A stretch of 64,000 nucleotides of DNA from a bacterium (GCA_030697645.1 JAUYPI010000004.1:1141-65140); one strand, 5' to 3'; numbered from the stretch's first letter, positions 1,062 through 54,010 are shown. Numbers and translations are program-made. Notes: generated by a model from the letters alone, not told the origin.

Positions 1062-1180
1062 GTTACGAAATCCGAACTGGACATTTGACCATTGACATTT
1101 GACTTCGAACGACTGTCGCAGTCGTCAAAGGTCAAATGTTACATGTCAAATGTCATGATTCTGATTTCGAGCTTCGTACT
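1062..1180. repeat. modular long palindromic intergenic element (ACATTTGACC...GGTCAAATGT core)
   Basis: Inverted arms acatttgaccattgacatttgac / gtcaaaggtcaaatgttacatgtcaaatgtcatg; related copies at 10278-10330 and 26655-26830. Confidence 0.6.
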
Positions 1181-1202
1181 TGTGTTGCATCGGATATTGA
1201 AC

Positions 1203-3701
1203 ATGATGAACCACAGAACGCGTATTTTTTTGCGTGCGGGGTCACCCGTATTCCTCCTCTTTTTTGCGTTGTCCGTTGGCGCGCAGAATCCCTTTGACGC
1301 GCTGCAATTTCCGATCGCCGGGCTTGGCGACTGCGCCTCGGTTGAGGGATGCAAGCTCTATTGTGATGAGCCGGAGAACGCTCGCGCCTGCAGTGAGTGG
1401 GCGCGGGCGAATGGTTTTGGATCTGGCGGTCGTCGGGAGGACGGTGATCAAGAGCGCAGTGGCGAGGCAGGAGGGGATGAAGAACGTATCGAACACGCAC
1501 GAGAGACGCTCGAGCGGACGACTGGTCCCGGCGGCTGCAGCAGCCCCGAGGAGTGCGATGTGTATTGTTCAGAAGAGGCGCACCACGATGAGTGCCGTGC
1601 ATTTGCGCGCGAGCACGGTTTTGATACGCACGAGGAGGAACGGATCGGGCCTGGCGGCTGCCATTCCGAAGATGAGTGTCAGTCGTACTGTCGTAACCCT
1701 GAACACACGAGAGAGTGCGTTGCATTTGGCCTTAAAAACGGCAACTTGAGCCCGGAGGAGGCGGCGCGAATACTTTCACAGATTGAACGCGCGCATACGA
1801 TTGGTGCTGAAGCGCGAAATCGCGCTCGAGAGGCAGGCGAGCGCGTGCAAGGCGAAGTGGGCGAGCGTATCCGCGGCAAGATTGAGCGGTTTGATGAGAG
1901 ACGTGGGCGCGGCCCGCGCGGCCCTCGGATCGAGGTGCGCGAGCCGAAGATTGACGAGGAGAAGGCGCGGCAAATCCTCGAGACCGAAGGGGGACCCGGC
2001 GGCTGCAGCACGTTTGATGCGTGCGAGCAATTTTGTAATGCTCCCGAGAACGGCGAGACGTGCATGCAATTTGCGCTCGAGCATGATCTCATCGCGGGCG
2101 ACGAGGCCGCGCGGATGCGGCGGCTCATGGATTCAACAGGCCCCGGGGGATGTCGCGGAAGGGCATGCGAGCAGTATTGTGAAGCGCCAGGCCACGAGCT
2201 TGAGTGTATTGAGCACGCGGAGGGACTCGGTTTGATTGATCCCACGGAGGCAGAGCGCGTTCGTGGCTTCATGCGCCGCGGCGAAGAGCGCGGGCTCGGC
2301 TGCCGCGGCCGCGAGTGCGAGCGCTATTGCGAAGACCCGGCGCATCGCGACCAGTGCTTCGAGGCGTTTAAGGATCTCATCCCCGAGGAGGAGCGGGCGC
2401 ACATTGAAAAGTTCAAAGCAATTGAAGCACGCGTCGAGTCAGCGGGTGGACCCGGCGGGTGCAGAGCAGAGGAAGAATGCCATCAGTATTGCTCCGACTC
2501 CGCGCATTTTGACGAGTGTGCCGCGTTTGCCGTCGAGGCGGGGCTCTTCTCTCCCGAGGATGCGGAAAAGATGCTGAAGCAATTTATTAATGTCGAGAAT
2601 TTTCGAGGTGGTGGGCCGGAGGGTGTCACGGCCCCGCCGGGATTTGAGGGTTTCGGCGAGCTCGGCGAGCCACCGCCGTTTGAGCATTTTGAAGATTTTG
2701 AACTGCCGGAGGGCGTGCCCCCGGAAGCACGGGAGCAGTTCAAGGCGCAGTTTGAGCAGGGGTTTCAAGGTGAATACCGGCAGCGGTTTGAAGAAGAGTT
2801 CCGGGCGCGTGCCGGACGCTTTGGGGAGTTTCGGCAACAGTTTGGCGGGGAAGGCGGCGAGCACGGGCAGTTTCCCGGTGGATTCGGAGCACCGCAGGGT
2901 GGAATGCCTCCGGGTGGTTTCGGCGGGGGTTCTGGCGAGGGCGGTTTTCAAGGATTTCCGCAGCAGGGAGGTGAGACGAGCGTGCAACGGACAAGCGGCG
3001 GCATCTCGCACATCAGTCTGAAGACAAACGACTCCGGTCTCTTCACGCTTCGCATCGAGGACTCGGACGGTATCGCGAGCTTTGCGCTCGATCCCGCCGA
3101 GGGCTCACGCTACGGCGGGGATGTGCCGAACTGCCCGCGTCGGCATGAATCAACCACCGTGCGCCTCAGCGGCTCGTTCCCGTACACGCTTACTTACACC
3201 GACTGCGCGGGGAACACCACTGAACGCACGCTCTCGCAGAACGAAGCGTACGGCACTCCAACTGCGCCGCCCCAGGGATCGTTGCCGGGAGCGGGCACTG
3301 TACCAGTCCAGCCCCCGGGAGTTGGGGGAATTCCGCAAGGGTTTGACCCGCGTTCGGTCGGCCTCCCCGAAGGCTTCCAGTTCGACGGGAGCAACATCCC
3401 GCCGGAGTTCCTCACAGACGAACTCCGCGCGCAGATTGAAGAGATGCGACGCCGTGAGACCGAGAACCAATACCACGAGCAGTACCAACAACAATCTGAT
3501 CAACAGTATCAGCAGCAGTATAATCAGCAGTACCAACAACAATACGACCAGCAGCAACAAAATTTCACACCGCCGGAATATCAGTACCCCCCACCCGAGG
3601 GCACCGAGCAGCACATAGACTCCACAGCCCCAACCGGCTTTTTCCTCTCCCGCATGATCGCGAACGCCGCGCGGGCGTTCCTGGAGTTGTTGGGAAGGTA
3701 G
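1203..3701 (+). CDS. secreted cysteine-rich repeat protein (7 tandem 4-Cys modules) with Gly/Phe-rich and Gln/Tyr-rich low-complexity tail
   Basis: Start moved to internal ATG 1203 after the palindromic element; signal-peptide-like N-terminus; repeats GPGGC-x5-C-x3-C-x8-C...; C-terminal QYQQQYNQQYQQQY. Confidence 0.6.
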   Translation: MMNHRTRIFLRAGSPVFLLFFALSVGAQNPFDALQFPIAGLGDCASVEGCKLYCDEPENARACSEWARANGFGSGGRREDGDQERSGEAGGDEERIEHARETLERTTGPGGCSSPEECDVYCSEEAHHDECRAFAREHGFDTHEEERIGPGGCHSEDECQSYCRNPEHTRECVAFGLKNGNLSPEEAARILSQIERAHTIGAEARNRAREAGERVQGEVGERIRGKIERFDERRGRGPRGPRIEVREPKIDEEKARQILETEGGPGGCSTFDACEQFCNAPENGETCMQFALEHDLIAGDEAARMRRLMDSTGPGGCRGRACEQYCEAPGHELECIEHAEGLGLIDPTEAERVRGFMRRGEERGLGCRGRECERYCEDPAHRDQCFEAFKDLIPEEERAHIEKFKAIEARVESAGGPGGCRAEEECHQYCSDSAHFDECAAFAVEAGLFSPEDAEKMLKQFINVENFRGGGPEGVTAPPGFEGFGELGEPPPFEHFEDFELPEGVPPEAREQFKAQFEQGFQGEYRQRFEEEFRARAGRFGEFRQQFGGEGGEHGQFPGGFGAPQGGMPPGGFGGGSGEGGFQGFPQQGGETSVQRTSGGISHISLKTNDSGLFTLRIEDSDGIASFALDPAEGSRYGGDVPNCPRRHESTTVRLSGSFPYTLTYTDCAGNTTERTLSQNEAYGTPTAPPQGSLPGAGTVPVQPPGVGGIPQGFDPRSVGLPEGFQFDGSNIPPEFLTDELRAQIEEMRRRETENQYHEQYQQQSDQQYQQQYNQQYQQQYDQQQQNFTPPEYQYPPPEGTEQHIDSTAPTGFFLSRMIANAARAFLELLGR

Positions 3702-3724
3702 AGGGTAGAGAGTAGAAACATTGT

Positions 3725-3762
3725 CCCGCCGCAGAGACCAAGTCTCTGCGGCGGGGGTTTGC
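3725..3762 (+). terminator. intrinsic terminator hairpin (cccgccgcagagac...gtctctgcggcggg + T-rich)
   Basis: Perfect GC-rich inverted repeat directly after the 1203-3701 stop. Confidence 0.5.
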
Positions 3763-4678: not shown

Positions 4679-4734
4679 GACAAGAGCCACGTGTTAGAAC
4701 CCAAAGCGCAAAGTTGACTCGAAAATGTCACATG

Positions 4735-4868
4735 CAAAAATTTACAATTTTCAATTTTGCAATTTTCAAATAATTTTCAATGTGTCAATGACTCAATGAC
4801 GACGACGTCGTTCGTGTTTGAAAATTGCTTCATTGAAAAATTGATTGAAAATTGAAAATTTTGTTGGC
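4735..4868. repeat. modular palindromic element: (CAATTTT)n - core caatgacgacgacgtcgttcgtgtttg - (AAAATTG)n
   Basis: 7-mer tandem arrays in inverted orientation around an AAACACGACG-type core; sits immediately upstream of rseP. Confidence 0.6.
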
Positions 4869-4906: not shown

Positions 4907-6025
4907 ATGAGTATTGTTATTTTTTTAGTTATTCTCGCCGTCCTGATCCTCGTCCACGAGTTCGGGCATTTTTTGCTTGCGAAGCAAGCGGGGATTCGTG
5001 TGGATGAGTTTGGCCTCGGCTTTCCGCCGCGTCTCTTTGGTCGAAGGAAGGGCGAGACCATGTACTCGATCAATGCGATTCCGTTTGGCGGTTTTGTGAA
5101 AATTTTTGGCGAGGACCCTTCTGAGGAGGCGCGGAACGGCCCGGATGCCGCGCGAAGTTTTATTAACCGCCCGAGGGCGACGCAGGCGGCGGTGCTCGGT
5201 GCCGGTGTCGTGTTCAATCTCCTTTTCGCGTGGCTTCTCCTCACGGCGGCATTTACTTCCGGAATGCCTGCATCAGTCGGGTTCGCTGAGGGATTGCCGG
5301 TCACGAACGAGCGCGTCATAATTACGAGCGTGCTCCCTGGCTCGAGCGCGGAGCGCGCGGGACTCGAGAGCGGCGACATCATTCGTGCGGTTGACGCCAA
5401 GGACGGCGTCGTTGGCGCGGTGAGCGTCGAGGCCATACAGCAGTTTATTGCCGCGCGTGGCGGGGAGCCACTTCTTCTTACCTACGAGCGCGACGGAGCA
5501 GTCGAGCAGGCGTCGGTGACACCGGCAGTTTTAGCGTTTGAGACGCTCGAGGCGAGTGGAGCTGCCGCTCGACCAGTTATCGGCATCACGATGGACATGA
5601 TCGGCGAGGTGGCGCTGCCGCTCCACCTCGCAGCAGTTGCGAGCGGCCGTCTTTCCTTTGAGCTTCCGGGGCGCATCGCGGTCGGCCTCGGCGAGCTTAT
5701 CGCCGGGGCAATTCGCGGCACCGCGGACTTCTCCGAAGTCGCCGGGCCGGTCGGGATCGTGGGGCTCGTTGGCGAGGCGGCTCAGTTTGGGTTCGTCTCG
5801 CTCCTCTCATTCACCGCTTTCATATCGCTCAATCTCGCGGTGATCAACCTTCTGCCGTTCCCGGCGCTCGACGGCGGGCGGCTGCTTTTTGTCGGGATCG
5901 AGGCGCTGAAGCGCAGCCCCATCAGCCCGCGGATCGCGAACACTGCGAACACCGTGGGCTTCGTCCTTCTTATCCTCCTCATGCTCGCGGTGACGTACAA
6001 CGACGTCGTGCGCTTGCTACACTGA
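4907..6025 (+). CDS. rseP: RIP zinc metalloprotease RseP (site-2 protease, M50 with PDZ)
   Basis: 372 aa; HEFGH zinc motif at N-terminus, PDZ-like middle (VLPGSSAERAGLESGDIIRAVD), C-terminal LDGG motif, multiple TM helices. Confidence 0.85.
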   Translation: MSIVIFLVILAVLILVHEFGHFLLAKQAGIRVDEFGLGFPPRLFGRRKGETMYSINAIPFGGFVKIFGEDPSEEARNGPDAARSFINRPRATQAAVLGAGVVFNLLFAWLLLTAAFTSGMPASVGFAEGLPVTNERVIITSVLPGSSAERAGLESGDIIRAVDAKDGVVGAVSVEAIQQFIAARGGEPLLLTYERDGAVEQASVTPAVLAFETLEASGAAARPVIGITMDMIGEVALPLHLAAVASGRLSFELPGRIAVGLGELIAGAIRGTADFSEVAGPVGIVGLVGEAAQFGFVSLLSFTAFISLNLAVINLLPFPALDGGRLLFVGIEALKRSPISPRIANTANTVGFVLLILLMLAVTYNDVVRLLH

Positions 6026-7186: not shown

Positions 7187-7235
7187 TTCCTCGTCCCACT
7201 CTCCACTTTCTACCCTCCACTCTCTATCGTACCAA

Positions 7236-7414
7236 TAGACCTCTTGCATAACCCGCTCCTGCTACAATTTCTGATTTTTGGCTGCGACTTCGTCGAGTTT
7301 CGCAAAATGATTCTCGTCGTACAACAAGTACGCCGTCGAATCATTTTGCTCACTCTCCTCGTCTCGCTCAAAAATTAGAAATCTCGCGACGAAGCGGGTT
7401 ATGCAAGAAGTCTA
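7236..7414. repeat. ~180-bp TIR-bounded palindromic element (family TAGACCTCTTGCATAACCCG...CGGGTTATGCAAGAGGTCTA), copy 1
   Basis: One of 6 near-identical copies; internal nested inverted repeats (gcaaaatggttc/gaaccattttgc etc.); ends at the nucleotide before the ATG of the 7415 gene. Confidence 0.85.
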
Positions 7415-7723
7415 ATGAAATCCTACCCGATCAAAAACGAACTCGACTTTCTTATCGCGCGCGCAGAGAGCGAGCGTTCGGAGATGCAGACGCTGCTCGA
7501 TACTTCTCGCCGCGATGGCGATTATTGGAGAGAGAAGGCTACAGCGAAGCTCGCGACGTTTCTCGGCCTTGAGGTGCAATTTCTCTCGCGCCTTGCCGAG
7601 CTCGAGAGCGATTATCCCGAACTGGCCGCCGCCATCGAGGAGCGTAAGCGCTACCTCGCGGCTCTCGTAAGCGAGGCGCGGGCGATGTACGCCGCCTGGC
7701 AGGGTGCCGCGGAACAGACATGA
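7415..7723 (+). CDS. hypothetical protein
   Basis: 102-aa charged/helical ORF; ATG abuts the repeat element; 4-nt overlap with the downstream gene. Confidence 0.45.
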   Translation: MKSYPIKNELDFLIARAESERSEMQTLLDTSRRDGDYWREKATAKLATFLGLEVQFLSRLAELESDYPELAAAIEERKRYLAALVSEARAMYAAWQGAAEQT

Positions 7724-13147: not shown

Positions 13148-13215
13148 AATTTCCAATTTCCAAGCAAGTTCCAATTTCCAAATTTTCAAATCTAAAACAC
13201 GACAGACCGCGGCGT
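13148..13215. repeat. partial modular palindromic element (ttccaatttccaa arrays + aaaacacgac core)
   Basis: Half-element of the 7-mer-array family immediately upstream of the Clp-like gene. Confidence 0.45.
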
Positions 13216-13241: not shown

Positions 13242-15818
13242 ATGCTCCCTACACATCTCGCCCTCGCCATTCGTTCTTTAGTCCCGGTGCTCCGCACTGA
13301 GCGTGTGATTTCGCACGCGCGGCGAAGAGCAGTACGTCATTTTTCTGTTGCGATTTTTTGCGTTGCGCTGGTGCTTGTCGGTGTCGGAATCCTGCTCGCG
13401 ACACTTCGGGTGCGGTTTCCTTCCATGGTTCCTGCGCTTGGAGCACGTCAGGTGTTTTTTTTAGTTTATGCCGGAGCGCTGCCTCGTCTTATCGGCCTTG
13501 GCCTCATCGCGGCCGCGCTCTCGCTCACGCTTGTGATGCTCGAGGCGTTTTACTACTCCCATTATTTTCGCGCGCGCGGAGCACTCGGCGCTACAAGCGA
13601 CGCCAAGGGCGCAGGTGATGAGGTGACGGCAGAACCACGGATCACGTTCGAGGCCGCCGAGTCGCTTTATGATGTGTACGCGCGCGGAGAGCTCCTCGCG
13701 CGCTCGTTCCTCGCCTCGCGCCACGGCACCGAGGTATTAAGGCGCCTTGAGCTCGCGAGCGAAAATATCGCTGCGCTCGCCGCGGCGGCTGGCACGAAAG
13801 ACGCTGCTCTATCGTCTGAGAGCACGCCCGAGGAGGATACGAGCGCTGTGCCGCAAGAATTCACGCTGCGCTCCGTTGCCGAACAGTTTGTCTGGGCTGA
13901 CGAGGGCGTTCGCATCGGGCTCCTCTCGCACGAAATTACGAACGAGCTTTTTCTCGGCGCTGCGGCGTGGGTCGCGGAGCGCCGAGAGCGAGCGCACGAG
14001 CGGGAGCGGTGGTGGTCGCTTGAGCGGCTCAAGGCGGTGGGCGTTGTCGGTGACGTATGGTCTTATGGCGGCGCGTACCGTCTGCGCCGGTTTGCAAAGT
14101 CGATTTCGCACGCAGTAATTAGTGACCTCACGTCGTATGGCACGGCGGAAGCGCACGCGCTCGAGAGCGTCCTCTCAAGGACGAGTGAGGCGAATGCGCT
14201 TCTCGTCGGCGACGATACAATCGGGATCGATGTGATCCTCTCCCGCCTTGCTGCGCGTATCGCCTCAGGCGAGGTGGCGGAGGCGCTGCGGCATAGCGAA
14301 TTCTTTTCACTTGATCTTGCAGCGCTCCTTGCCGCGACGGGATCAAAGGCGGCCTTTGAAGGCGAGTGCGTGCGCGTTTTTGAGGATGCTGTCGCTGCAG
14401 GTAACATTACACTTGTCATCCCCTCGCTCCCACAGGCGCTCGTGAGCATGCAGAAGCTCGGTGTGGATTTTCTTGAGCTTATTGATCCGTATCTTCGCGG
14501 GAGCAGCATTCATGTCGTCGCGACCGCGCATCGCGGCGCGTTCCACAAAAGCATGGGAGCGGAGCAGCGTCTCGCCGAGCGTTTTGAGGAGGTTGAGATT
14601 GAGCCTGCGGACTCGAGCGTACTCGCGTCGCTCTTGCTTGCCCGCGCCGAGGAGCTTGAGCGGCGTCGTGGCGTCTTCTTCTCATTTCCGACGATTTTTG
14701 CCACTGCGGAGAGTGCGCGGCAGTATTTCCCCTATGGCTCGCCTCTCGACAACGCGTTTGACCTCCTCGATGAGCTTGCGGCACGCCCCGTTAGAAGCAT
14801 CGAGGGTGCTTCTAACGGGGCACGCGCGGCAGGCGAGCGCGAGAGCCGCCTCATCCGCCGCGCCGACCTCGACGCGCTCGTTAAAGAGAAGACCGGCATT
14901 CCTGTGGGCGAGATGGGAGCTCGCGAGCGGGAGCGGCTCCTCTCGCTCGAGAAGCTGCTCGGCCGCCGCGTTCTGGGACAGCCTGAGGCTCTGCGCGCCG
15001 TTGCCGAGGCTCTGCGTCGCGCACGAGCAGGGCTTACGAAGGGCGAGAAGCCCATGGGGTCATTCCTCTTCCTTGGCCCCACCGGAGTCGGGAAGACCGA
15101 GACATCGAAGGCGCTCGCGGCTGCACTCTTTGAAGACGAAAAGCGCCTCTCGCGCCTCGACATGTCCGAGTTTAATACCGCAGATGCGGTGGAACGTCTG
15201 ATCGGCTCACCCGACGGCGCAGAGTCAGGGGCCCTCGCGACGATCCTCCGCGATCAGCCCTATGGGGTGCTTCTCCTCGATGAGTTTGAGAAAATGCATC
15301 CGAACGCGCTCAATATTTTTCTCTCAGTGCTCGACGAGGGCTTTTTTACCGACGGCGCGGGGAGGAAGGTTTCGGCGCAAAACGTGATCATAATCGCGAC
15401 ATCGAACGCAGGGAGTGATTTTATTTTTGAGGCAGTCGAACGTGGAGAGGATCCATCCACACGCACGGATGAGCTCGTAAGTAAACTCATTGAGCAGAGG
15501 ATCTTCAAACCCGAACTTCTGAACCGCTTCGACGGCGTCATCGTCTTCCGCCCGCTCGGCCCCGAGGAGCTCCGCGGCATCGCGCGGATTCTTCTTGCGG
15601 GTCTCGCGCGCGAGCTTACCGAGAAAGGCGTGACTCTTGAGATCACAGAAGAAATCGTCGCGTTCCTCGCAGAGAAAGGTTTTGACCCTAAATTCGGTGC
15701 CCGCCCCATGCGCCGCGCGCTTCAAGAGCACATTGAGGAACCCATCGCCCGCAAGCTAATCGCCGGAGAGCTCCGTCCAGGCACCACGCTTCTTCTGACA
15801 CCGGAGACGCTCCGGTGA
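13242..15818 (+). CDS. membrane-anchored ClpC/ClpB-family AAA+ ATPase with degenerate first nucleotide-binding domain
   Basis: N-terminal ~100 aa hydrophobic (3 TM) instead of a Clp N-domain; D1 aligns to ClpB NBD1 (SGEVAEAL vs NGEVPEGL) but Walker A is GDDTIGID and Walker B is VIPSL; D2 intact (GPTGVGKTE, LLLDEFEKMHP, GARPMRRAL); no IGF/LGF ClpP loop seen. Confidence 0.75.
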   Translation: MLPTHLALAIRSLVPVLRTERVISHARRRAVRHFSVAIFCVALVLVGVGILLATLRVRFPSMVPALGARQVFFLVYAGALPRLIGLGLIAAALSLTLVMLEAFYYSHYFRARGALGATSDAKGAGDEVTAEPRITFEAAESLYDVYARGELLARSFLASRHGTEVLRRLELASENIAALAAAAGTKDAALSSESTPEEDTSAVPQEFTLRSVAEQFVWADEGVRIGLLSHEITNELFLGAAAWVAERRERAHERERWWSLERLKAVGVVGDVWSYGGAYRLRRFAKSISHAVISDLTSYGTAEAHALESVLSRTSEANALLVGDDTIGIDVILSRLAARIASGEVAEALRHSEFFSLDLAALLAATGSKAAFEGECVRVFEDAVAAGNITLVIPSLPQALVSMQKLGVDFLELIDPYLRGSSIHVVATAHRGAFHKSMGAEQRLAERFEEVEIEPADSSVLASLLLARAEELERRRGVFFSFPTIFATAESARQYFPYGSPLDNAFDLLDELAARPVRSIEGASNGARAAGERESRLIRRADLDALVKEKTGIPVGEMGARERERLLSLEKLLGRRVLGQPEALRAVAEALRRARAGLTKGEKPMGSFLFLGPTGVGKTETSKALAAALFEDEKRLSRLDMSEFNTADAVERLIGSPDGAESGALATILRDQPYGVLLLDEFEKMHPNALNIFLSVLDEGFFTDGAGRKVSAQNVIIIATSNAGSDFIFEAVERGEDPSTRTDELVSKLIEQRIFKPELLNRFDGVIVFRPLGPEELRGIARILLAGLARELTEKGVTLEITEEIVAFLAEKGFDPKFGARPMRRALQEHIEEPIARKLIAGELRPGTTLLLTPETLR

Positions 15819-30363: not shown

Positions 30364-30366
30364 GTT

Positions 30367-36012: not shown

Positions 36013-36087
36013 AAGTGGACATCGAAAGTGGACAAAAAGTGGACATCCGATGTCCCACATGACGATGTCCCACATGAGTCCCACATG
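36013..36087. repeat. iteron-like array: 3x AAGTGGACA then 3x (A)TGTCCCACATGA (inverted), followed by hairpin terminator 36093-36116
   Basis: Direct and inverted 9-12-bp repeats immediately downstream of secY; centre includes GGACATCCGATGTCC palindrome. Confidence 0.5.
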
Positions 36088-36142
36088 AAAAACAGCCCAA
36101 CGCGGTGGTTGGGCTGTTGACTTTTGTGGAAGGGAAAGAACA

Positions 36143-36400: not shown

Positions 36401-36411
36401 TGCATTTCCCT

Positions 36412-37233: not shown

Positions 37234-37432
37234 TCGCTACCTCCCCTGATTTTTAACAACGAACATCTTCCTCGGACTCATCCCACGCTGCTTTATATCT
37301 ATGGAAATGTCAAGCTCCGCGGGACTGGCCGATGTGTTGGTCATAAGGATGTCTAACATTATAGCTGGCCGTGTCAGTCATCCGATGTCACACACAGCAG
37401 TTGTGTGTCATCGGACGTCGGACATTGCAGCG

Positions 37433-37640
37433 TTGACAACCACGGCGCGAGCCGTAGACTGAAAACATAAAAAAGTTCTACATCTCTCTCGCCACCCTCT
37501 GTATTTTGTCGGCGGTGTTTGGTATTTGGACAGCGAGCCGCGCGGGTAGCGAAGAGATCAGTGCATGCGTCGGCACCTCTGGCCTCATGCGCTCTCTCGC
37601 GAGCGGCGAGTGCCGTCGCGGAGAAACGGGATTTAAATAG
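37433..37640 (+). pseudogene. duplicated 5' fragment (upstream region + first ~55 codons) of the secreted-protein gene at 40165; start codon mutated (ATG to ATA)
   Basis: ~90% identity to 40133-40330 (ttgacaaccacggcgcga...aaaaagttctacatctctctcgcca...), reading KKFYISLATLCILSAVFGIWT... then premature stop. Confidence 0.6.
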
Positions 37641-37654
37641 CCGAGGAGGTAGCC

Positions 37655-38485
37655 GAGGAGGGTCAGACCCTCCTCGGTTTGCAGAGCCATCGGTTTACAT
37701 ACTATGTGGTAGGATAATGCTAATGCCGCGACAGACGAGACAGTTTGAAGAGGGCGGGATTTACCATGTCCTCAATAGAGGAGTTGAAAAGAGAAAAATA
37801 TTTTCCAAGACGCAAGATTACCACCGCTTTATACTTGGACTTGAATTTTTCAACTCATCCGATACTACCGACCTGTGGCATCTTCTTGCCCGAGGAGGGT
37901 CTGACCCTCCTCGGGCAAGAGTACAGTCGGTGGGCGAGAGGCTTGCGTCGCAGCGCACGAAGCAAAAATGGCATCTCGTCGATCTCCTTGCTTTTGTGCT
38001 TATGCCAAACCACTTTCATCTTATACTGCGCGAGATTCACGAAGGGGGTATTTCTGCGTTTATGAAAAAGCTGGGTGGATACGCCATGTATTTTAATAAA
38101 CAATATCATCGCGTCGGTCCGCTTTTTCAGTCGCGCTATAAGGCGGTACCGATAAAAAGTGACGCACAACTTTCAGTGATTTATACCTACGTGCATACTA
38201 ATCCGGTAGAGATCATTGAGCCGCTGTGGAAGAAGGAGAACAAGGTGTTTCATCTCGACAAAGCGCTCGCGTACCTCAATGAATATCCTTGGACGAGTTA
38301 TCATGACTATGTGGGGAGGCCACAGTTTCCTTTTGTTACCCAGCGTGATTATTTGTCCGATTACTTTGGGAGCGCACAGGCGTGTCAGAGGGAAGTAGAG
38401 GAGTGGGTAGAGCACAAAGCGGCGATGGCTGACTTTGATCGGCGCGAGTTTGAGTAAGGCAGCAGAGGAGGGTCAGACCCTCCTC
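37655..38485 (+). mobile_element. REP-RAYT unit: RAYT gene bracketed by REP hairpins GAGGAGGGTCAGACCCTCCTC
   Basis: REP copies at 37655-37675 (upstream), 37892-37912 (inside the CDS, inverted centre) and 38465-38485 (8 nt after the stop). Confidence 0.7.
37717..38457 (+). CDS. REP-associated tyrosine transposase (RAYT; IS200/IS605-family Y1 HuH transposase-like)
   Basis: IYHVLNRGVEKRKIF (N-terminal strand, cf. YHVVxRTKYR), HuH motif MPNHFHLIL, catalytic Tyr region FQSRYKAV; 11 codons (LLARGGSDPPRA) are encoded by an in-frame REP copy. Confidence 0.75.
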   Translation: MLMPRQTRQFEEGGIYHVLNRGVEKRKIFSKTQDYHRFILGLEFFNSSDTTDLWHLLARGGSDPPRARVQSVGERLASQRTKQKWHLVDLLAFVLMPNHFHLILREIHEGGISAFMKKLGGYAMYFNKQYHRVGPLFQSRYKAVPIKSDAQLSVIYTYVHTNPVEIIEPLWKKENKVFHLDKALAYLNEYPWTSYHDYVGRPQFPFVTQRDYLSDYFGSAQACQREVEEWVEHKAAMADFDRREFE

Positions 38486-38815
38486 GCGCCATATTGTTAG
38501 TGGGTTTGCTGCATAATCACGCCATGCGGAAAAAAATGTTTGTCAGCGTTGCGTGCGGCGATGTTCTTCGGCAGAGTGGTAGTATAAAAAAATGAAAAGG
38601 CCCCATCTTATTTTTCTCGGCGCGCTCGCGATAGTGTTCGCGGCAGCGAATATGTAGACGTTCATTTTTCTCCATTTCCCTTGCGAGTTTGTGTATTCTG
38701 GCGGCAGTGTTTGAAGGTGTCATCGAGATGGGAACAAACTGAAGACGTTGATGAGGTGGATAAGTGAAAAGCCCGCACAGCATCGTGCCGTGCGGGCATG
38801 TAATTCCTTACGGGA

Positions 38816-39496
38816 TCACCTTCGTATGTGTCGCCACAATCTCTCAATGAATGATGGCGAGGGAAGGCGTATCAGCATCGCCTCAGAAGTCGGGATTAAT
38901 TCGTATTCATCGTGTATTCGATCCTGTCGTTCTCGGGAGGAGCGGATGACGCGCCAGTCGTATTCGTATCTCCGTTGTTCGCCTACAAGATATCGGCTCA
39001 GTCGGGTAAAAGCAGCCATTTGAGCGATACCAAGCAGTATCACGGGTATCATCGCATCTCGAATCTCGACCGACGATTTTTGAAACGAATACATGAGAAA
39101 TCCGACTACAAAAAGAGTTAAAACGGCATAGGTGAGTTGCGCCGCAAAAGCAAGTACGCCTCCTCGCGCACCTCGTCGGTTGAAGCGGTGCCATTTAAGA
39201 CGCCTGTCGGGATCGCGGGATTCCCAAAACACCGCGATGTACCCACCGATACGAAGTGCTTGGCTTAGACTGTTGAGGTAAACCAAGCTGGACACTGCGA
39301 GGACCGCAAAGAGAAACAGAGCGAACACAGCGTGACTGACTTGAGGAGATTCTGATCCGCCTTGATACCACGCAAGCGCTACAAAAATGAACACGCTTGT
39401 TACGTACAGTATATATCTCCCGTGCGCAAGGAGTTCCCGTAATTCGTCACGCAAGGAAATAAACTCTTCAAACCTGTTCGAATCAACTTGTCGCAT
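38816..39496 (-). CDS. hypothetical membrane protein
   Basis: 226 aa, 4 TM helices. Confidence 0.45.
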   Translation of the reverse strand: MRQVDSNRFEEFISLRDELRELLAHGRYILYVTSVFIFVALAWYQGGSESPQVSHAVFALFLFAVLAVSSLVYLNSLSQALRIGGYIAVFWESRDPDRRLKWHRFNRRGARGGVLAFAAQLTYAVLTLFVVGFLMYSFQKSSVEIRDAMIPVILLGIAQMAAFTRLSRYLVGEQRRYEYDWRVIRSSRERQDRIHDEYELIPTSEAMLIRLPSPSFIERLWRHIRR

Positions 39497-39563
39497 ACGC
39501 CCTTCTCCATGGTATGATGAGAAATGAATTGAGGGTGGTTTTTTTAACCACCCTCCAATTTCT

Positions 39564-39779
39564 CTACTCGTAATCTCCGCGCATCACTCGGTGCACTAGC
39601 CGAAGTAAGCATCCGTGTATGGCACCCAAGAGCCAAACCATCCACACGCCAGCTGTATCGTTGGGAACATAGATGAGGTAATACCCCACCATACCGAGGG
39701 ACACAAGGATCAATGCAGGAATCCCAAACAGGAGTACTTTGTCCATAATCTGATGGCGCACTTCGGGAGATAAACGCAC
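39564..39779 (-). CDS. hypothetical small membrane protein
   Basis: 71 aa, 2 TM helices. Confidence 0.35.
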   Translation of the reverse strand: MRLSPEVRHQIMDKVLLFGIPALILVSLGMVGYYLIYVPNDTAGVWMVWLLGAIHGCLLRLVHRVMRGDYE

Positions 39780-39947
39780 ATTTTTCTCCTTCTCATTCTA
39801 AATGCGTTCGACAACGTAAATGTACTACCAAGCCCGGCTTTACAGTGCATGTTTATAGGCAAAAAGTCAAGTTTCCCGTTTTTTATGCGGGCTTGAACGA
39901 TGTTCGAACTACCGGGAAAGCGGGGGAGGGGGGGGTCTTATAGAGAT

Positions 39948-40126
39948 TAGACTTCTTCGGAAACCCCTTTCGTGGCGAAATTTTTGATTTTTGAGCGAGA
40001 CGAGGAAAGCGAGCAAAGTGACTCGACGGCGTACTTGTTGTACGATGAGAGTCATTTTGCGAAGCTTGACAAAGTCGCAGCCAAAAATCAAAAATTGCAG
40101 CAGAAGGGAGTTTCCGAAGAAGTCTA
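39948..40126. repeat. ~180-bp TIR-bounded palindromic element, copy 5 (inverted orientation, variant TIR)
   Basis: tagacttcttcggaaacccc...ggagtttccgaagaagtcta; left boundary of the surface-protein island. Confidence 0.85.
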
Positions 40127-40164
40127 TTGGTTGACAACCACGGCGCGACCCGTAGGATGAAATC

Positions 40165-40833
40165 ATGAAAAAGTTCTACATCTCTCTCGCCACGCTCTGT
40201 ATTTTGTCTGCGGTGTTTGGCATTTGGACACTCAGCCGCGCAGGGGGCGAAGAGATCAGTGCATGCGTCGGCCCCTCCGGCCTCATGCGCTGGCTCGCGA
40301 GCGGCGAGTGCCGCCGCGGCGAGACCGAGCTCAATTGGAACGTGCAGGGGCCGCAAGGTTTACAAGGCGAGCGTGGACCGGCAGGGTCACAACTCCATTT
40401 GTTTGACGCAAGCGGGCAAGATCTCGGGGTACTTCTCGATATAGATAACGACATTCGCGAAAATGGGACTGGTTTTCGTACTGATTTTCCGTCTTTAGAC
40501 GCCGTGTTCGATTTTCAGTCATCTGTAAACCCGCCTTCATTTATTGTCTCTTCGAACTTATTGCCTCGCGGTTTGGTTTTTAGTGAATCAGATTGCTCAG
40601 GGATGCCATTTGTCGTTGAGCGACCGCTCCATGACTACACGGTAACCGAGTTTGACGGCTCGTATTATATGACCGGAGGCGTAGACAGCGATCCGGGCAC
40701 CGCAATGTCATACTTTGACAACACTGGCCGCGTTTGCATGAACATTCTACCGGAAGCGACCTCGACCTTTCCGCTTGTAAAAATAGTCCTTCCTTTTACT
40801 CTGCCCCTTGCGTACCCTCCTATGATTGATTAA
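40165..40833 (+). CDS. secreted protein with short collagen-like (G-X-Y) segment
   Basis: Signal peptide MKKFYISLATLCILSAVFGIW; GPQGLQGERGPAG triple-helix-type repeat. Confidence 0.55.
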   Translation: MKKFYISLATLCILSAVFGIWTLSRAGGEEISACVGPSGLMRWLASGECRRGETELNWNVQGPQGLQGERGPAGSQLHLFDASGQDLGVLLDIDNDIRENGTGFRTDFPSLDAVFDFQSSVNPPSFIVSSNLLPRGLVFSESDCSGMPFVVERPLHDYTVTEFDGSYYMTGGVDSDPGTAMSYFDNTGRVCMNILPEATSTFPLVKIVLPFTLPLAYPPMID

Positions 40834-40892
40834 AAATAGGTAAGGACACCGTCTGAAAAAATTTGTTCACTTGCCCGCGAATGTTAGACATC

Positions 40893-41068
40893 GGATGTCT
40901 AACATTTCACGAAATTCGAAATCCGAAGCACGAAATACGAAACAAATCAGAATGACCAAAATATAAATACTCGAAACACGACGGCCGTATTTTGAACATT
41001 AGGACATTTGGATTTTGATATTGTTTCGGATTTCGATATTCGTGCTTCGGATTTAGGTTTTCTTTATG
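40893..41068. repeat. modular palindromic element (cgaaat arrays around cgaaacacgacggccgtattttg)
   Basis: Same architecture as the 30367-30535 element; abuts the 41066 start. Confidence 0.6.
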
Positions 41069-41953
41069 CTTTCTTTTCTCCGCAGACATTTGATTCTTTC
41101 GCTCGGCGCGCTCGCGCTGTTTGCTTTTATTTTTAGCGAAGCTGTGTTTGCGCTTCCGGTGCGGCTCCTCACCTGGGAGCCGGAGCGGCTTGCGCCGAGC
41201 TCGATTGCGCCGGGGGAGGAGGTGACTTACACAGCAATTTTTACGCCGACGCTTCCGGTGCCGAAAGTGGAGAGTCTCACCGCCTCGCTCACGGGTCCGG
41301 CGGCGGACTTCCTAACCTCGCTCACGGTTGATTTGCCGACGGAGACAGGGAACACGCTTCGCGGCGGGACGAGTGTTCCGGTGCGGCTCGCGGTGCGCGT
41401 TCCTCTCGGCGCTGTCGTTGGGAGCTACCCGGGTACACTCACCCTGCGCTACGGCGAGGATGGTCTGCCGCTCCTTTTTGCGCCCGACCTTGCGGTGGAG
41501 CTCACGGTGTCGACCGTTCCCGTCCCGCCTGACCCGGGTAAAGCAGGGAAGGAGACGATCGCGGGGATTGACGTGAACACAAACGGCGTCCGCGACGATG
41601 TCGAGCGCTTCATCGTCTTCTCCTATAACGACATCACTCCAGAGCACGAGAATACAAGGAACGCGCTGTTCCAATATGCAGGGGCGGCGCAGGAGGGGCT
41701 GATGAACGCCGCAGACAAAGTGCAGGCGAGAGCGGAAGGGGAAGAGTTGGATCAAGCGCAGAATTGTCTTTGGGCAGTACGCGGCACCGAGGAGGGCAAC
41801 ACCGCTAGTTCGATACTGACAGCACAAATGTTCAACACAGTTGCTCGGACACGACAGTGGAGCATGTTTAATCAACAACTGAGCGGTCTCGTTTCTGTGT
41901 TAGAAACGAATGAAGAAATTTTACGAGGCGACTGCTCCTTTGAGATTCAGTAG
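41066..41953 (+). CDS. secreted hypothetical protein
   Basis: Signal peptide; Pro/Thr-rich beta-type N-terminal half. Confidence 0.5.
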   Translation: MLSFLRRHLILSLGALALFAFIFSEAVFALPVRLLTWEPERLAPSSIAPGEEVTYTAIFTPTLPVPKVESLTASLTGPAADFLTSLTVDLPTETGNTLRGGTSVPVRLAVRVPLGAVVGSYPGTLTLRYGEDGLPLLFAPDLAVELTVSTVPVPPDPGKAGKETIAGIDVNTNGVRDDVERFIVFSYNDITPEHENTRNALFQYAGAAQEGLMNAADKVQARAEGEELDQAQNCLWAVRGTEEGNTASSILTAQMFNTVARTRQWSMFNQQLSGLVSVLETNEEILRGDCSFEIQ

Positions 41954-41963
41954 TTTTGGCTTT

Positions 41964-43109
41964 ATGACGGCGAAATTGTTTCCCATCGTCGTTGCGCTGC
42001 TTCTTGTTTTCGGCTATGCACAGTCAGCGCACGCTTCCGCGTGCGCTGAACCGACAATGTCAATCTTTTTCGTAAACGGGATTGGCAACACTCGTGAGGA
42101 AGCGCGGCAATCTACGAAGGTTCTGGCAGACCATCTTTACACACATGCCGAAGTCACGCCGGAGTGCGTTCAAGTGGGTCTCGCCTACAATCACAACGAA
42201 CCCCTTTTTCTCGACTGGGTTGAGGCGTGGGAGCAGAAGATGGCGGAGGTGGACGACTTTATGGTCACGTTTTGGCTCTTCCTCGGTAGAGTCGCTGGCG
42301 CATCGGACGTGTTCCTCGCGACACTCTATAACGCCGTCACCCTTATTGACCCGCCAGCATACCTCATCGACGCCGATCTTGATGAGCACCTCGCCGCCTA
42401 TCGCAGCGAAATCACCGTAGGCCGCAAAGTGATCGCTGTCCCACACTCTCAAGGAAACTTTTATGCGAACGAAGCATGGGAAAAGCTTACCCCAGAAGAG
42501 CGCGCGTCTTTCCACATCGTCGCTGCCGCAACTCCGTCGGTGAGCGTGGCAGATGGCGGCCCCTACACGACGCTCGATGAAGACAAGCTGATCGCCGCCA
42601 TTCCGCTCTCACTTCCCTCAAACCTCACGAACGGCTCCGACTTCTCCTGCGAGGACGACTGGAAGTGCCATGGGTTCAAGGAGACGTATCTCAAGGCGAG
42701 TGCGGCGAGCGAAGACAAAATCGTCGAGGACATTCTCGCTTTGCTCATCGTCCCCCCTCCGCCTTCGCCCGAGGAGTTCGCGGAGCTTCGCGGCACCGTG
42801 ACCTACCAAATCAGACCTGATGATCCGATTATCCCCGCAGTCGGCGCGTCGTCCACCCTGCTTGCGGCGCCGGTCGGCGTTCGTGTTTACCAATACGCGA
42901 CGACCAGCGTTGATGCGGACGGCCACTATAGCTACCAGAATCTTCCTCTGGGACGCTACGTCCTTCGTTTAGAGCATCCCACGATCAGCCTGAACTTTAT
43001 TTTTTTCCTCGGTATGATTATTGATCAGCCGAAGACCTACATTCAGGATATACACTGGGGGCCGCTGCCGCCAGAGGCATGGGATTGTCTACCGCTGTGT
43101 GCGGAGTGA
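41964..43109 (+). CDS. secreted alpha/beta-hydrolase-like (lipase/esterase-type) protein with C-terminal carboxypeptidase-regulatory-like beta domain
   Basis: Signal peptide; nucleophile-elbow-like AVPHSQGNFY; C-terminal DGHYSYQNLPLGRYVLRLE. Confidence 0.45.
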   Translation: MTAKLFPIVVALLLVFGYAQSAHASACAEPTMSIFFVNGIGNTREEARQSTKVLADHLYTHAEVTPECVQVGLAYNHNEPLFLDWVEAWEQKMAEVDDFMVTFWLFLGRVAGASDVFLATLYNAVTLIDPPAYLIDADLDEHLAAYRSEITVGRKVIAVPHSQGNFYANEAWEKLTPEERASFHIVAAATPSVSVADGGPYTTLDEDKLIAAIPLSLPSNLTNGSDFSCEDDWKCHGFKETYLKASAASEDKIVEDILALLIVPPPPSPEEFAELRGTVTYQIRPDDPIIPAVGASSTLLAAPVGVRVYQYATTSVDADGHYSYQNLPLGRYVLRLEHPTISLNFIFFLGMIIDQPKTYIQDIHWGPLPPEAWDCLPLCAE

Positions 43110-43348
43110 CAAAACATTAACGACGCTTTACAGCGAGTACGCTTTGTTTCGTAACTGTATTTTTGATGAGTTATGCGTTGACAGAGAAGAGCGCACGTCC
43201 GTAGTATGAACATTACGAGTGACGAGGTAACAGTTACCTGTTACTAAAATTGCATCTCGCGGGGGAAACCGGGGTGCATAGCAGACGAATGCTATGCAGA
43301 CCAGTTTTTCTCGCGATTTTCTTTTGGGCGCACAGGGAGTGGAGGTGA

Positions 43349-43396
43349 AAAACAAACCCGTCACGCGGTTCTTTGCCGCGTGACGGGTTTGTTTTT
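43349..43396 (+). terminator. long perfect hairpin + T-run (aaacaaacccgtcacgcgg...ccgcgtgacgggtttgtttttt); first of three consecutive hairpins (to 43502)
   Basis: 21-bp perfect stem; followed by a 23-bp-stem hairpin 43398-43462 and a 11-bp-stem hairpin 43466-43502. Confidence 0.5.
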
Positions 43397-43607
43397 TGAG
43401 CCCACACGTTGGCGCGTCTCGGTATTCATAAAATGTAAGCGAGACGCGCCAACGTGTGGGCTCCGGGAGACAACATGGAGTTTTGCGACGTCATGTTGTC
43501 TCTGCCGAGGAGCTCACACAGGTCGATACCGGAGGTTTCTTCCGTTTACCATATGGGACGGAGGAAATAGATGTTCCGGCTTTATTGTTTTAACACGTAA
43601 TTTCTCT

Positions 43608-49176: not shown

Positions 49177-49355
49177 TAGACCTCTTGCATAACCCGCTCC
49201 TGCTGCGATTTTTGATTTTTGGCTGCGACTTCGTCGGACTTCGCAAAATGGTTCTCGCCGTACAACAAGTACGCCGTCGAACCATTTTGCTTGTCTTCCT
49301 CGTCTCGCTCAAAAATCAAAAATCTCGCCACGAAACGGGTTATGTAAGAGGTCTA
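49177..49355. repeat. ~180-bp TIR-bounded palindromic element, copy 6
   Basis: Right boundary of the surface-protein island; forward orientation. Confidence 0.85.
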
Positions 49356-50082: not shown

Positions 50083-50181
50083 GGAGCGTGTATTTTGTAG
50101 CGTGTATTTTGTATTGCGAAAATGCGAGATACAACATACACCATACAGATGTAAACCCCCGAGATGACTCGGGATTTTTTT

Positions 50182-53233: not shown

Positions 53234-53340
53234 ATGCCCGTCATTCTATTGAAGTCCATTGAAGCCTCCTAATTTTTCGTCATTATGTAACTACTCAGGT
53301 ACAGTCGTCGTTGTGTGCAACACCGAGTGTTCAATAGTGT

Positions 53341-53832
53341 TCAGCATTTTTGTTTACGCGGGGACTGTGATACGACTGCCATCCACCGCAGCGAGATGTC
53401 TGAGAGCGTGCGGGGGTAGTAGATGTTGTCGTAGTCGAACCAGAGACGCATGAACGTGTGCTTCGGCAGACGGCGCACGCTGCTCACTTCAGGGTCTGCG
53501 ATGTAGATGTGCTCGGCGGTGGCGCGGTCGAGCACACTGAAGTGCCCGCGATGCCCTTCGAGCATCCATGCAAGGATGATGAGCCGCCGCTCGGTGTTCA
53601 GCCGTCGGAGGTCTTGCCAGGAGGCGCGTTTTCGCGTCTTCACCGAGAGCCCGAGGCGGCGGAGCGTGCGGAGGAGCTCATCGTTCGTGAGCCCGCCGCG
53701 CTCCCGTGCGCGCGTGAGGCGGTCAATATATGAGAGTGAATAAGGCAGGCCGAAGTAATCGGCCGCCATTTTGATGCAGATGGGGCCGCAGCTCCTGGCG
53801 TGGGGCGGGTTGAGGGGGAGGACCTTGGGCAT
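53341..53832 (-). CDS. peptidase C39-like domain protein
   Basis: Start set at MPKVLPL; Cys-containing N-terminal motif (CGPICIKMAADYFGLPYS) and downstream His (GHFSVLD) consistent with the papain-like C39 fold. Confidence 0.45.
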   Translation of the reverse strand: MPKVLPLNPPHARSCGPICIKMAADYFGLPYSLSYIDRLTRARERGGLTNDELLRTLRRLGLSVKTRKRASWQDLRRLNTERRLIILAWMLEGHRGHFSVLDRATAEHIYIADPEVSSVRRLPKHTFMRLWFDYDNIYYPRTLSDISLRWMAVVSQSPRKQKC

Positions 53833-53924
53833 CGCAGCACCATTGTGCTCGAGAGTGCCGAGAGCGGCAAGACTTGACAGGAGGCAGGCCACTTGGGGAA
53901 CAGGTCTGTCAAACGCCGGAGGGT

Positions 53925-54010
53925 TCGGTTTGGGCGTGCCCCAAAATCCCAAACACGCACGTCGTGTTTGGAGATTGAATTTTGAGTATTGTGATTTGTT
54001 TGGAGACGGG
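53925..54010. repeat. modular palindromic element fragment (cccaaacacgcacgtcgtgtttgg core + tttgg arrays)
   Basis: Same core family as 19944-20103; upstream of the C39-like gene. Confidence 0.5.

Follow-up and report, generated by a model that had tools for sequence, protein, structure and literature searches.

What are the long palindromes of tandem heptamers that recur next to gene starts in a 64,000-nucleotide (nt) stretch of bacterial DNA (GCA_030697645.1 JAUYPI010000004.1:1141-65140; the whole stretch, numbered from its first letter, is called the window), and do they serve the genes that they precede? A preliminary description listed ten such elements, here named E1 to E10 (Table 1), and suggested that they carry promoter or 5' untranslated region function, for example as an operator of a global regulator, or else that insertion next to starts is tolerated. 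The evidence favours the latter. With a probability of roughly 0.55, the ten sites are non-coding foldback repeats similar to miniature inverted-repeat transposable elements (MITEs), probably non-autonomous mobile repeats whose insertion is tolerated and which share no promoter or operator. The observation itself is real and well above chance; the links to start codons and to ribosomal-protein genes were overstated in the preliminary description.

AT-rich inverted repeats (28-47% GC, in a window of 56% GC) with period-7 tandem arrays in their arms (Tandem Repeats Finder) were present at all ten sites as described, all of them outside confirmed genes. The elements are imperfect palindromes of 110-180 nt; in the inverted repeats of E1, E2, E4, E7, E8 and E9 the arms measure 32-58 nt and are 73-84% complementary. 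Eight of the ten (E1, E2 and E4 to E9) are single long hairpins, with fold z-scores from -3.3 to -7.8 and 0 of 200 dinucleotide shuffles per element as stable. The single architecture that had been proposed was seen in these eight full hairpins and, by relatedness, in all ten, with the qualification that E3 is a half element and the left arm of E10 is truncated. Outer-arm units follow CGAA-N3 in the canonical form and CCAA-N3 or TCAA-N3 in derivatives of the window lineage. The three arm types (cgaaat, ttccaaa and caatttt, after the heptamers CGAAATC, TTCCAAA and CAATTTT) differ by single substitutions which are matched on the opposite arm (CGAA:TTCG, CCAA:TTGG, TCAA:TTGA), and it is the pairing between arms, not any recognition sequence, that is preserved. 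The outer heptamer arms enclose inner modules such as CAAATGACC, and the centre varies by lineage, being here mostly AAACACG..CGTGTTT. This core motif was strongly enriched: AACACG-N2-18-CGTGTT was observed 3 times versus 0.07 expected and AAACACG 25 times versus 8.6 expected. A GC-rich palindromic core of this type is not general, being absent from the centres of E1 and E5. These two elements bear out the proposed recombination of arms and cores, as they combine canonical cgaaat outer arms with other inner ACATTTGAC modules.

Pairwise identity across all ten elements is 64-93%. The copies group into E7, E8 and E2 (82-93%; E7 versus E8 93%, E2 versus either 82%), E6 and E9 (83%, 10 kb apart), E1 and E5 (82%, 25 kb apart) and E4, E10 and E3 (78-90%). 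Copies from separate subfamilies still align with 64-73% identity across more than 120 nt, and because the local alignment scores (33-48) exceed the shuffle maximum of 20, the ten sites represent one superfamily of multi-copy, non-coding, palindromic repeats. Inner segments of 45-120 nt that contain no repeats retain 82-93% identity at loci far from each other, E4 and E10 share 90% identity over 89 nt at loci 34 kb apart, and the right arm of E10 is 90% identical to the reverse complement of the left arm of E4. Copies have evidently been duplicated to distant loci within the genome in copy-and-paste style. Half and nested copies also exist (E3, E10 and a fragment at 63585), besides about 30 solo arms. 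A small TGTATTT/ATACAAC heptamer palindrome (50085-50147) has the same architecture as the elements and no detectable sequence homology to them; it is possibly related to the superfamily.

Comparison of orthologous spacers, which the preliminary description had put forward as a check, was carried out on loci retrieved around the closest homologues of S7 and L10 (L002, L003, L004 and L175), and showed that relatives hold another arm type, a 31-nt mini-palindrome or nothing. The rpsL/rpsG junction carries a cgaaat-arm element with core AAACACGGTCGTCGTGTTT in the window, a cgaaat-arm element with core AAACACGGCCGTCGTGTTT in L002 (S7 identity 85%) and a ttccaaa-arm element in L004 (92%); in L003 (86%) there is no spacer and the genes overlap as ATGA. 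A site filled in three genomes and empty in a fourth is the presence/absence polymorphism expected of a MITE. In the rplJ leader, the conserved blocks AGGCCGAAGAAGCAG..GGCCGC and TTCTGCGGAGGCA bracket three unlike inserts (alignment A3). The window has there a caatttt-type element of 134 nt, L004 a cgaaat mini-palindrome of 31 nt and L175 a ttccaaa-type element of 115 nt with core CCAGACACGACCGGTCGTGTCTGG. E3, located upstream of clpB in the window, is 86% identical to the L004 element, which there lies at rpsL/rpsG. Both presence/absence and arm-type replacement at orthologous sites are thus apparent in these alignments. Since L003 lacks the rpsL/rpsG element, the inserts are unlike and the counterpart of E3 is elsewhere in L004, the elements are dispensable, occupy different loci in different genomes and, at occupied sites, change arm type and length quickly.

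E6 and E9 are typical members of a family found across phyla, the CGAA-N3 family, with the consensus ..CGAAATCCGAAGCACGAAATCCGAAACAAAT..loop..ATTTGTTTCGGATTTCG... A pattern of 19 nt from the cgaaat arm, GAAATYCGAAGCACGAAWW, for which we calculated a chance expectation of about 35 in 596 Gb, was matched at at least 120 loci in the GTDB genome collection. The metagenome-assembled genomes (MAGs) matched were labelled as Planctomycetota, Desulfobacterota, Patescibacteria, Omnitrophota, Kiritimatiellia, Hydrogenedentes, Nitrospiraceae and others. According to our tally of record titles, the first 80 records listed comprised about 28 Planctomycetota (Phycisphaerae, Tepidisphaerales, Pirellulales, Planctomycetaceae), about 25 Desulfobacterota or 'delta' lineages and about 15 Patescibacteria, the remainder including Omnitrophota, Kiritimatiellia, Hydrogenedentes, Ignavibacteriae, Nitrospiraceae and gammaproteobacteria. 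A complementary right arm followed within 300 nt in at least 74 of the 132 matches listed, and several of the remaining matches were full elements scoring just under the cut-off. Because the host loci span 32-71% GC and only 3 pairs among the matches listed share flanking sequence, the copies are independent insertions in unrelated genomes and not one contaminant.

An alignment of 38 foreign copies with E9 and E6 (A1) gave the consensus AAATnCGAAATCCGAAGCACGAAATCCGAAACAAATTC..CAAAAC-[variable loop]-GTTTTG..TTTGAATTTGTTTCGnATTTCGAnTTTCGnATTTCG, whose most conserved feature is CGAA in the left arm and TTCG in the right arm every 7 nt; the three variable positions of each heptamer are not conserved. 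A hidden Markov model (HMM) built from the 38 foreign copies alone, without window sequence, retrieved E9 (E = 4.5e-35), E6 (9e-31), the L002 element (3e-23), the L004 element (9e-10), E4 (1e-8), E3 (8e-5), both arms of E5 (2e-5 and 6e-4) and E10 (3e-3), with marginal values for E1 (0.04) and E7 (0.07). In 866 kb of fetched loci the same model found 29 extra copies that had not been selected by the pattern; HMM regions totalled 152 in these 866 kb of other genomes, and the window holds 10 copies and a fragment in 64 kb. The canonical form therefore occurs in many phyla. Since the caatttt and ttccaaa arms, the ACATTTGAC module and the AAACACG core were absent from the 120 loci of other phyla, they appear to be derivatives specific to the window lineage. 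An apparent conserved internal loop with an intrinsic orientation (GAAGCAC on the left, GATATTC on the right) proved to be an artefact of choosing copies with that motif. In a 36%-GC Patescibacteria MAG contig, five canonical elements lie within 3.5 kb (L033, 2925-6365), some of them bearing an additional terminal inverted repeat (GATGTGAGA..TCTCACATC) outside the heptamers.

BLAST searches with E9 against PLSDB plasmids and INPHARED phages gave no match. The canonical arm pattern occurred in 4 IMG/VR contigs, with 3 full elements on contigs of 60-65% GC, two of them near-identical; these are too few to argue for phages as vectors. The core pattern AAACACGNNCGTCGTGTTT gave 5 IMG/VR matches, all armless and hence regarded as chance matches. 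Arrays of (AATTTTC)n with n of at least 3 were present in 39 IMG/VR viral contigs (L135-L173), none with a complementary array within 300 nt, and several of these arrays end a few bases ahead of an apparent ATG start. Searching the literature for the element sequences, and for MITEs shared between phyla, gave nothing relevant, and no paper containing an element sequence was found.

With respect to the neighbouring genes, every one of the ten elements has a gene start on at least one side; the window is compact and mostly plus-strand and the elements fill its spacers, and each element therefore lies upstream of some gene. The end of the element was said to fall 5-20 nt before the start codon. 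This was approximately so for E4, E5, E6, E8 and E9 (3-23 nt), and not for E1 and E3 (26 nt), E2 (42 nt) and E7, the last with a gap of 127 nt because rplJ begins at ATG 31523 (MVLTREKKQ, shared with two relatives) instead of GTG 31466. Several elements adjoin the upstream gene equally closely, the rpsL stop codon lying at E6 and that of a zincin-like gene at the left edge of E5. E6 (rpsL/rpsG) and E8 (rplJ/rplL) are intercistronic, inside what are normally operons. Nor is there an element ahead of every ribosomal-protein gene: rpsL (ATG 29956) has no heptamer element and, 12 nt ahead of the ATG, only a small hairpin with T7 behind it (CACGCG-gaca-CGCGTG).

Spacer types could be assigned to 51 of 67 distinct full copies from other phyla, using crude gene calls (longest open reading frame, ORF). 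The copies were distributed as 36 tandem, 9 divergent and 6 convergent, versus 207, 63 and 53 among the background junctions in those loci; p was 0.45 for the convergent and 0.86 for the divergent class. Equal frequency downstream of genes, which the preliminary description regarded as speaking against a regulatory role, was thus roughly observed in the wider family; in the window, by our count, elements occupy none of the roughly 11 convergent junctions, 2-3 of the roughly 11 divergent ones and 7-8 of the roughly 37 tandem ones, the hypergeometric p for the convergent class being about 0.10. The GAAGCAC-bearing arm points downstream in 21 copies and upstream in 19, so that orientation is unbiased with respect to the adjacent genes. 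In 39 copies situated between co-directional genes, fold stability and G-U pairs did not differ between sense and antisense strands (p = 0.5 and 0.7). Placement, orientation and strand statistics showed no functional signature.

Regulation by one global regulator that reads the heptamers, comparable to omega-type ribbon-helix-helix proteins at their heptad operators, or promoters within the arms, would agree with the gene start beside all ten elements and with the 7-bp CGAA/TTCG periodicity as the most conserved feature across phyla. It would also agree with promoter-like sequences in the arms, where the preliminary description had suggested looking for -35/-10 boxes. Promoter and terminator scans covered 26000-42000; -35/-10-like matches occurred solely in caatttt arms (both arms of E7 and the right arm of E8; TTGAAA-17-GAAAAT, 9/12 matches), facing outward on both sides as a by-product of the ATTGAAA array. 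None was found in E5, E6 or E9, and cgaaat and ttccaaa arms gave no promoter-like matches; the scan yielded 14 sites in total, with 9.3 +/- 2.8 expected. Heptamers differ between subfamilies at the same site in relatives, so that no single recognition sequence is kept, elements lie inside operons and directly after stop codons, their placement equals the background mix of junctions, rpsL has none, and no candidate regulator gene recurs near them. The promoter or operator role put forward in the preliminary description is therefore unsupported and in our estimation very improbable. A role of the hairpins as RNA within transcripts, be it as RNase III processing or stabilising sites, as insulators or in translational coupling (a ribosome finishing the upstream gene would open the stem and free the next start codon), is unlikely. 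In its favour, two elements (E6 and E8) separate co-transcribed ribosomal-protein genes and a third (E7) is within the rplJ leader, stems start a few nt from stop codons and end 3-23 nt ahead of starts, and the same positions are filled in several relatives by elements in which the sequence changes and the pairing is kept. In the rplJ-rplL element of L175, (AAUUUUC)n pairs with (GGAAAUU)n via G-U pairs in the sense strand only (-33.3 versus -17.1 kcal/mol), and in 8 of 12 elements of the window lineage the sense strand folds more stably, a ratio of 8:4 which is suggestive and not significant. This trend was not reproduced in the 39 co-directional copies; orientation is unbiased, L003 manages without an element by overlapping rpsL and rpsG, copies also lie between convergent genes at background rate, and Rfam gave no match for the window elements. 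Rfam 15 at gathering threshold returned one group I intron and two tRNAs for the whole window, and a permissive scan over E6-E9 only miRNA-hairpin noise (12-26 bits). An intrinsic-terminator signature, defined as a T-run behind a GC-rich stem of at least 5 bp, was found for one core (E8, minus strand) among 42 flagged sites, and the runs after element cores contain only 3-4 T.

It is also conceivable that the palindromes are immobile and grow in place, slippage expanding heptamers around a small terminator-like or REP-like starting hairpin and local duplication or gene conversion producing the similarity. For this reading speak the over-representation of intergenic heptamers in bacteria, for which slippage has been proposed as the cause (PMC4692102), the armless core-like hairpin upstream of rpsL, the differences in arm length and unit number between orthologous sites, the adjacency of E7 and E8, and the non-palindromic (AATTTTC)n arrays that are common in IMG/VR contigs. 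We consider it quite improbable, as it has to account for non-repetitive inner segments of 45-120 nt that are 82-93% identical at distant loci, and for the same sequence of about 140 nt in many phyla, which independent growth in place cannot yield.

Mobile, MITE-like insertion would accommodate these observations as follows. Heptamers would turn over by replication slippage and gene conversion between copies, and horizontal transfer would spread the elements between phyla. Self-pairing of an inserted element would rejoin its two flanks, leaving an RNA leader helix intact or a stop codon beside the next start, and little harm would come from an element placed at a leader-helix tip (E7) or at a stop-start junction (E5, E6, E9). 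Persistence in ribosomal-protein operons and the tight fit to gene borders may be due to this self-folding. The placement is explicable without a dedicated promoter, operator, terminator or RNA function.

Several observations weigh against this interpretation, the strongest of which, if the elements were purely selfish, are the long occupancy of sites in relatives, the failure to find a mobilising enzyme and the near-identity of arms across phyla. The same sites are filled in several relatives at only 80-92% protein identity, which would also fit selection for a hairpin there. Arms of about 50 nt that are near-identical across phyla are unusual for purely selfish MITEs and hint at a constraint on them. 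The empty convergent spacers of the window and the far better folding of the L175 rplJ-rplL element as sense RNA, both given above, point in the same direction. No target-site duplication or defined termini were found when pairing was extended outward in 67 copies; the ends are ragged, with CG, GA or AA at the left end and TT, CG or TG at the right one, and a short duplication might be hidden by the terminal heptamers. Neither an autonomous partner nor a recurrent neighbour was found in 120 loci with about 4 kb on each side, so mobility is what we infer.

Clustering of the ORFs of 124 loci likewise revealed no recurrent transposase-like family, the largest clusters being ABC ATPases and histidine kinases. 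The window encodes a RAYT-like Y1 (IS200-like) transposase (PF01797, E = 3.7e-7), which is flanked by hairpins of its own, unrelated to the elements (GAGGAGGGTCnGACCCTCCTC) and made up of a 25-nt perfect palindrome, CCGAGGAGGGTC(A/T)GACCCTCCTCGG, one copy of which lies in-frame inside the gene (..ARGGSDPPRA..). Y1 genes were detected by tblastn in 2 of 120 foreign loci, each flanked by unrelated repeats. The RAYT was rejected as the mobiliser, given its own REP-like hairpins and the lack of co-occurrence with the elements in other genomes.

The novelty lies in the conservation of the canonical CGAA-N3 hairpin between phyla. A possible but tentative reading is that this hairpin represents a kind of element not described before, which moves between phyla by horizontal spread and whose arms of about 50 nt are kept nearly identical by a machine reading the 7-bp CGAA/TTCG period or the hairpin; the machine could be a trans-acting transposase or recombinase, or a conserved host factor. 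The window lineage would then show a diversification in which the arms changed together, from CGAA:TTCG to CCAA:TTGG to TCAA:TTGA.

As a class, the elements are heptamer-array palindromic, MITE-like repeats, a kind already known, and the closest published description is that of the intergenic heptameric repeats of Xanthomonas and Nostoc. In Xanthomonas, about 90% of (GGGAATC)n heptamers are intergenic and about 40% occur as array pairs on opposite strands with stem-loop or cruciform potential; arrays at a given locus differ in unit number, length and sequence from one related species to the next, and their function is given as unknown (Rehm et al., 2015, PMC4692102). The same authors quote the idea that polymerase slippage favours 7-nt units and refer to the heptamer GGGGA(T/C)T in Nostoc/Calothrix as an intergenic repeat of this kind (PMC4692102). 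The elements studied here share the tandem 7-nt units, the intergenic position, the convergent pairing of opposite strands and the variation at the same locus (134, 31 and 115 nt in the rplJ leader; rpsL/rpsG). They differ in that the Xanthomonas repeats are G-rich and quadruplex-forming, whereas the elements here are AT-rich and their units (CGAAATC, CAATTTT, TTCCAAA) have no G-tracts; the former are restricted to a genus, have no conserved non-repeat inner modules or core described and sit nearer the upstream gene, whereas here one subfamily is conserved across phyla and unique segments are conserved. The STRR heptamers of Nostoc/Calothrix are intergenic heptameric repeats as well.

Correia/NEMIS elements of Neisseria and ERIC/IRU elements of enterobacteria are hairpin-folding, co-transcribed MITEs, imperfect palindromes of 100-160 bp present in many copies at gene borders and in operons, which can supply stop codons or outward promoters and show presence/absence polymorphism; in Correia elements the terminal repeats are defined and 26 bp long, and a TA duplication and an IHF site are present. 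The window elements resemble them in being palindromic, multi-copy, at gene borders and inside operons, and are, as MITEs are, short and non-coding with terminal inverted repeats. In contrast to Correia elements, no defined ends or duplication were found in them, and no transposase-encoding full-length partner with the same ends was found in 124 loci (about 4 kb each side); Correia and ERIC families, moreover, are limited to a genus or family and their arms are not heptamer arrays. The resemblance to REP/BIME/REPIN sequences is less close. It lies in the extragenic position of the palindromes, their high copy number, their nesting and a model of mobility based on single-stranded hairpins, but REPs are 20-40 nt long, GC-rich and tagged with GTAG/CGTC, whereas the CGTC of the present elements sits within the core stem and not as an end tag, and the cognate RAYT flanked by the same repeats that REP/REPIN require was found neither in the window nor in 120 loci. 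Eukaryotic Foldback elements possess long inverted arms of tandem short units around a variable centre, and Ac/Ds elements subterminal AAACGG hexamer arrays inverted at both ends; these are kilobase-scale and have known transposases, and the likeness is one of arm layout only, with no homology implied.

It is unusual, among bacterial miniature repeats, that a palindrome of about 140 nt is conserved near base for base at 32-71% GC in many phyla. Were the elements moved by a dedicated enzyme, or the 7-bp periodic CGAA read by a factor, this would be new mobile-element or nucleoid biology, and if the hairpin does spread horizontally the window lineage would offer a ready-made case in which to study the recognition of such elements. 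The long hairpins within rpsL/rpsG, rplJ/rplL and the rplJ leader, with the genes retained, amount to a natural experiment on structure tolerance. For annotation, the elements merit masking, as their arm translations (..EIRNPKSEIRN.. / ..FRISDFGFR..) are spurious ORFs. Clusters of such ORFs recur across unrelated MAGs, and TTG/GTG codons inside the hairpins falsely extend real ORFs upstream (starts 1092, 12948, 20051 and 26718), so automatic annotation would give wrong starts.

Table 1. Positions of the ten heptamer elements, of further repeats and of the genes referred to in the text (window coordinates).
Feature	Position	Strand	Structure	Period-7 arrays	Fold z	Context
E1	1064-1176		Full hairpin; short cgaaat outer arms; inner (G)ACATTTGAC / GTCAAATGT modules; centre CGACTG-tcg-CAGTCG	1080-1103/1124-1155	-5.9	4 nt past ORF 775-1059; 26 nt ahead of ATG 1203
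E2	4734-4864		Full hairpin; caatttt arms; degenerate core (..GACGACGACGTCGTTCGTGTTT)	4739-4769/4844-4860	-3.3	Divergent spacer; 43 nt from minus-strand gene start 4690, 42 nt from rseP ATG 4907
E3	13148-13215		Half element; solo ttccaaa-type left arm and left core half AAAACACGAC	13148-13181		26 nt upstream of ClpB-like ATG 13242
E4	19942-20103		Full hairpin; ttccaaa arms; core CCAAACACGACGTGCGTGTTTGAG		-6.9	Divergent spacer, miaA start 19917 and Wzy/TPR ATG 20108
E5	26663-26826		Full hairpin; canonical cgaaat outer arms (GAAATTCGAAGCACGAATATCGAAATCCGAA) and inner ACATTTGAC modules	26756-26787	-4.3	Zincin-like stop (26652-26654) at left edge; next ATG 26841
E6	30367-30540		Full hairpin; canonical cgaaat family; core AAAACACGGTCGTCGTGTTTT	30395-30427/30510-30540	-6.7	Fills rpsL-rpsG intercistronic spacer (stop 30363, ATG 30546)
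E7	31262-31395		Full hairpin; (AATTTTC)4 arms; core AAACACGACGTCGCCGTCCGTCGTTTG	31262-31292/31365-31395	-7.8	Within conserved rplJ 5' leader, 127 nt upstream of ATG 31523; flanks AGGCCGAAGAAGCAG..GGCCGC and TTCTGCGGAGGCA
E8	32079-32198		Full hairpin; caatttt arms; core AAACACGACCACGACGTCCGTCGTTTG	32079-32095/32167-32197	-5.4	rplJ-rplL intercistronic spacer (stop 32011, ATG 32214)
E9	40911-41062		Full hairpin; core GAAACACGACGGCCGTATTTTG; most canonical cross-phylum family member in the window	40909-40942	-7.3	Ends 3 nt ahead of ATG 41066; stop of upstream gene 40833
E10	53925-54030		Truncated; short left arm, core CCCAAACACGCACGTCGTGTTTGG, long right arm			Between minus-strand GNAT gene (end 54155) and C39-peptidase gene (probable start GTG 53892)
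Canonical-arm fragment	63585-63607	+	TTCGAAGCACGAAATACGAAAC; HMM E = 1e-3			Nested in hairpin of another repeat family (63427-63654)
Small heptamer palindrome	50085-50147		TGTATTT / ATACAAC			17 nt ahead of gene starting 50164
holB						
rseP	4907-6025					ATG 4907
ClpB-like ATPase	13242-15818					ATG 13242
miaA	18973-19917	-				Start 19917
Wzy/TPR protein gene	20108-22315					ATG 20108
Zincin-like gene						Stop codon 26652-26654
rpsL	29956-30363					ATG 29956; stop 30361-30363
rpsG	30546-31016					ATG 30546
rplJ	31523-32011					ATG 31523
rplL	32214-32618					ATG 32214
secY	34708-35997					
Pif1-like helicase						
AddA-like helicase						
C39 peptidase						
RAYT-like Y1 transposase	37717-38457	+				Hairpins at 37653-37677, 37890-37914, 38464-38487
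Second repeat family	7233-7417, 26061-26240, 33561-33739, 34534-34715, 39948-40126, 49177-49355		Long hairpin, about 185 nt			
Third hairpin family	27828-27910, 54876-54981, 58443-58809, 61716-61745, 63427-63654, 63975-64000		CTGGATTGCTTCGCTCC..CGCTCGCAATGACG			
GACATC(C/G)GATGTC palindromes	36011-36088, 36041-36055, 37380-37420, 40885-40905, 54036-54056					One adjoins E9, one adjoins E10

The gene content of the window is that of ordinary bacterial housekeeping. Its SecY and S7 are 67-74% identical to Parcubacteria/Paceibacterota proteins and closer relatives (85-95% identity) were found solely on contigs shorter than about 5 kb, so the window derives from a Patescibacteria-type bacterium that is sparsely represented in public data. 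The elements would explain the fragmented assemblies of this lineage and may also explain its rearranged ribosomal-protein operons. The ribosomal-protein gene order is disrupted (29956-32618 and 34708-35997): rpsL-rpsG are not followed by fusA/tuf, rplJ-rplL have neither rplK-rplA upstream nor rpoB downstream, an IclR-like ORF begins 10 nt past rplL, and secY is solitary. The adjacency of rpsG to rplJ is common to the window and L004.

Other repeats are present alongside the heptamer elements. A second family of six copies folds as a long hairpin, has its own heptamers (GATTTTTGATTTTTG / CAAAAATCAAAAATC) and carries terminal inverted repeats TAGACCTCTTGCATAACCCG.. with TA on both sides, the signature of an IS630/mariner-like MITE. 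A third hairpin family occupies at least 7 sites, and its copy at 63427-63654 encloses the heptamer-element fragment; similar nesting was seen in the foreign locus L034. Small GACATC(C/G)GATGTC palindromes are scattered through the window, and in the convergent spacer past secY three GTGGACATC units face three GATGTCCCAC units, forming an array palindrome of 11-15-nt units. The group I intron match (65 bits, E = 3e-14; 25715-26006, plus strand) lies outside tRNA and rRNA genes and begins 30 nt past the stop of an unannotated 252-amino-acid ORF (24927-25685). Three successive near-perfect GC-rich hairpins with stems of 13-24 bp (43257-43463) constitute the 200 nt of greatest stability in the window (-6.2 standard deviations), and the putative start codon (GTG 43380) of a 427-amino-acid Gly/Asp-repeat ORF falls within them.

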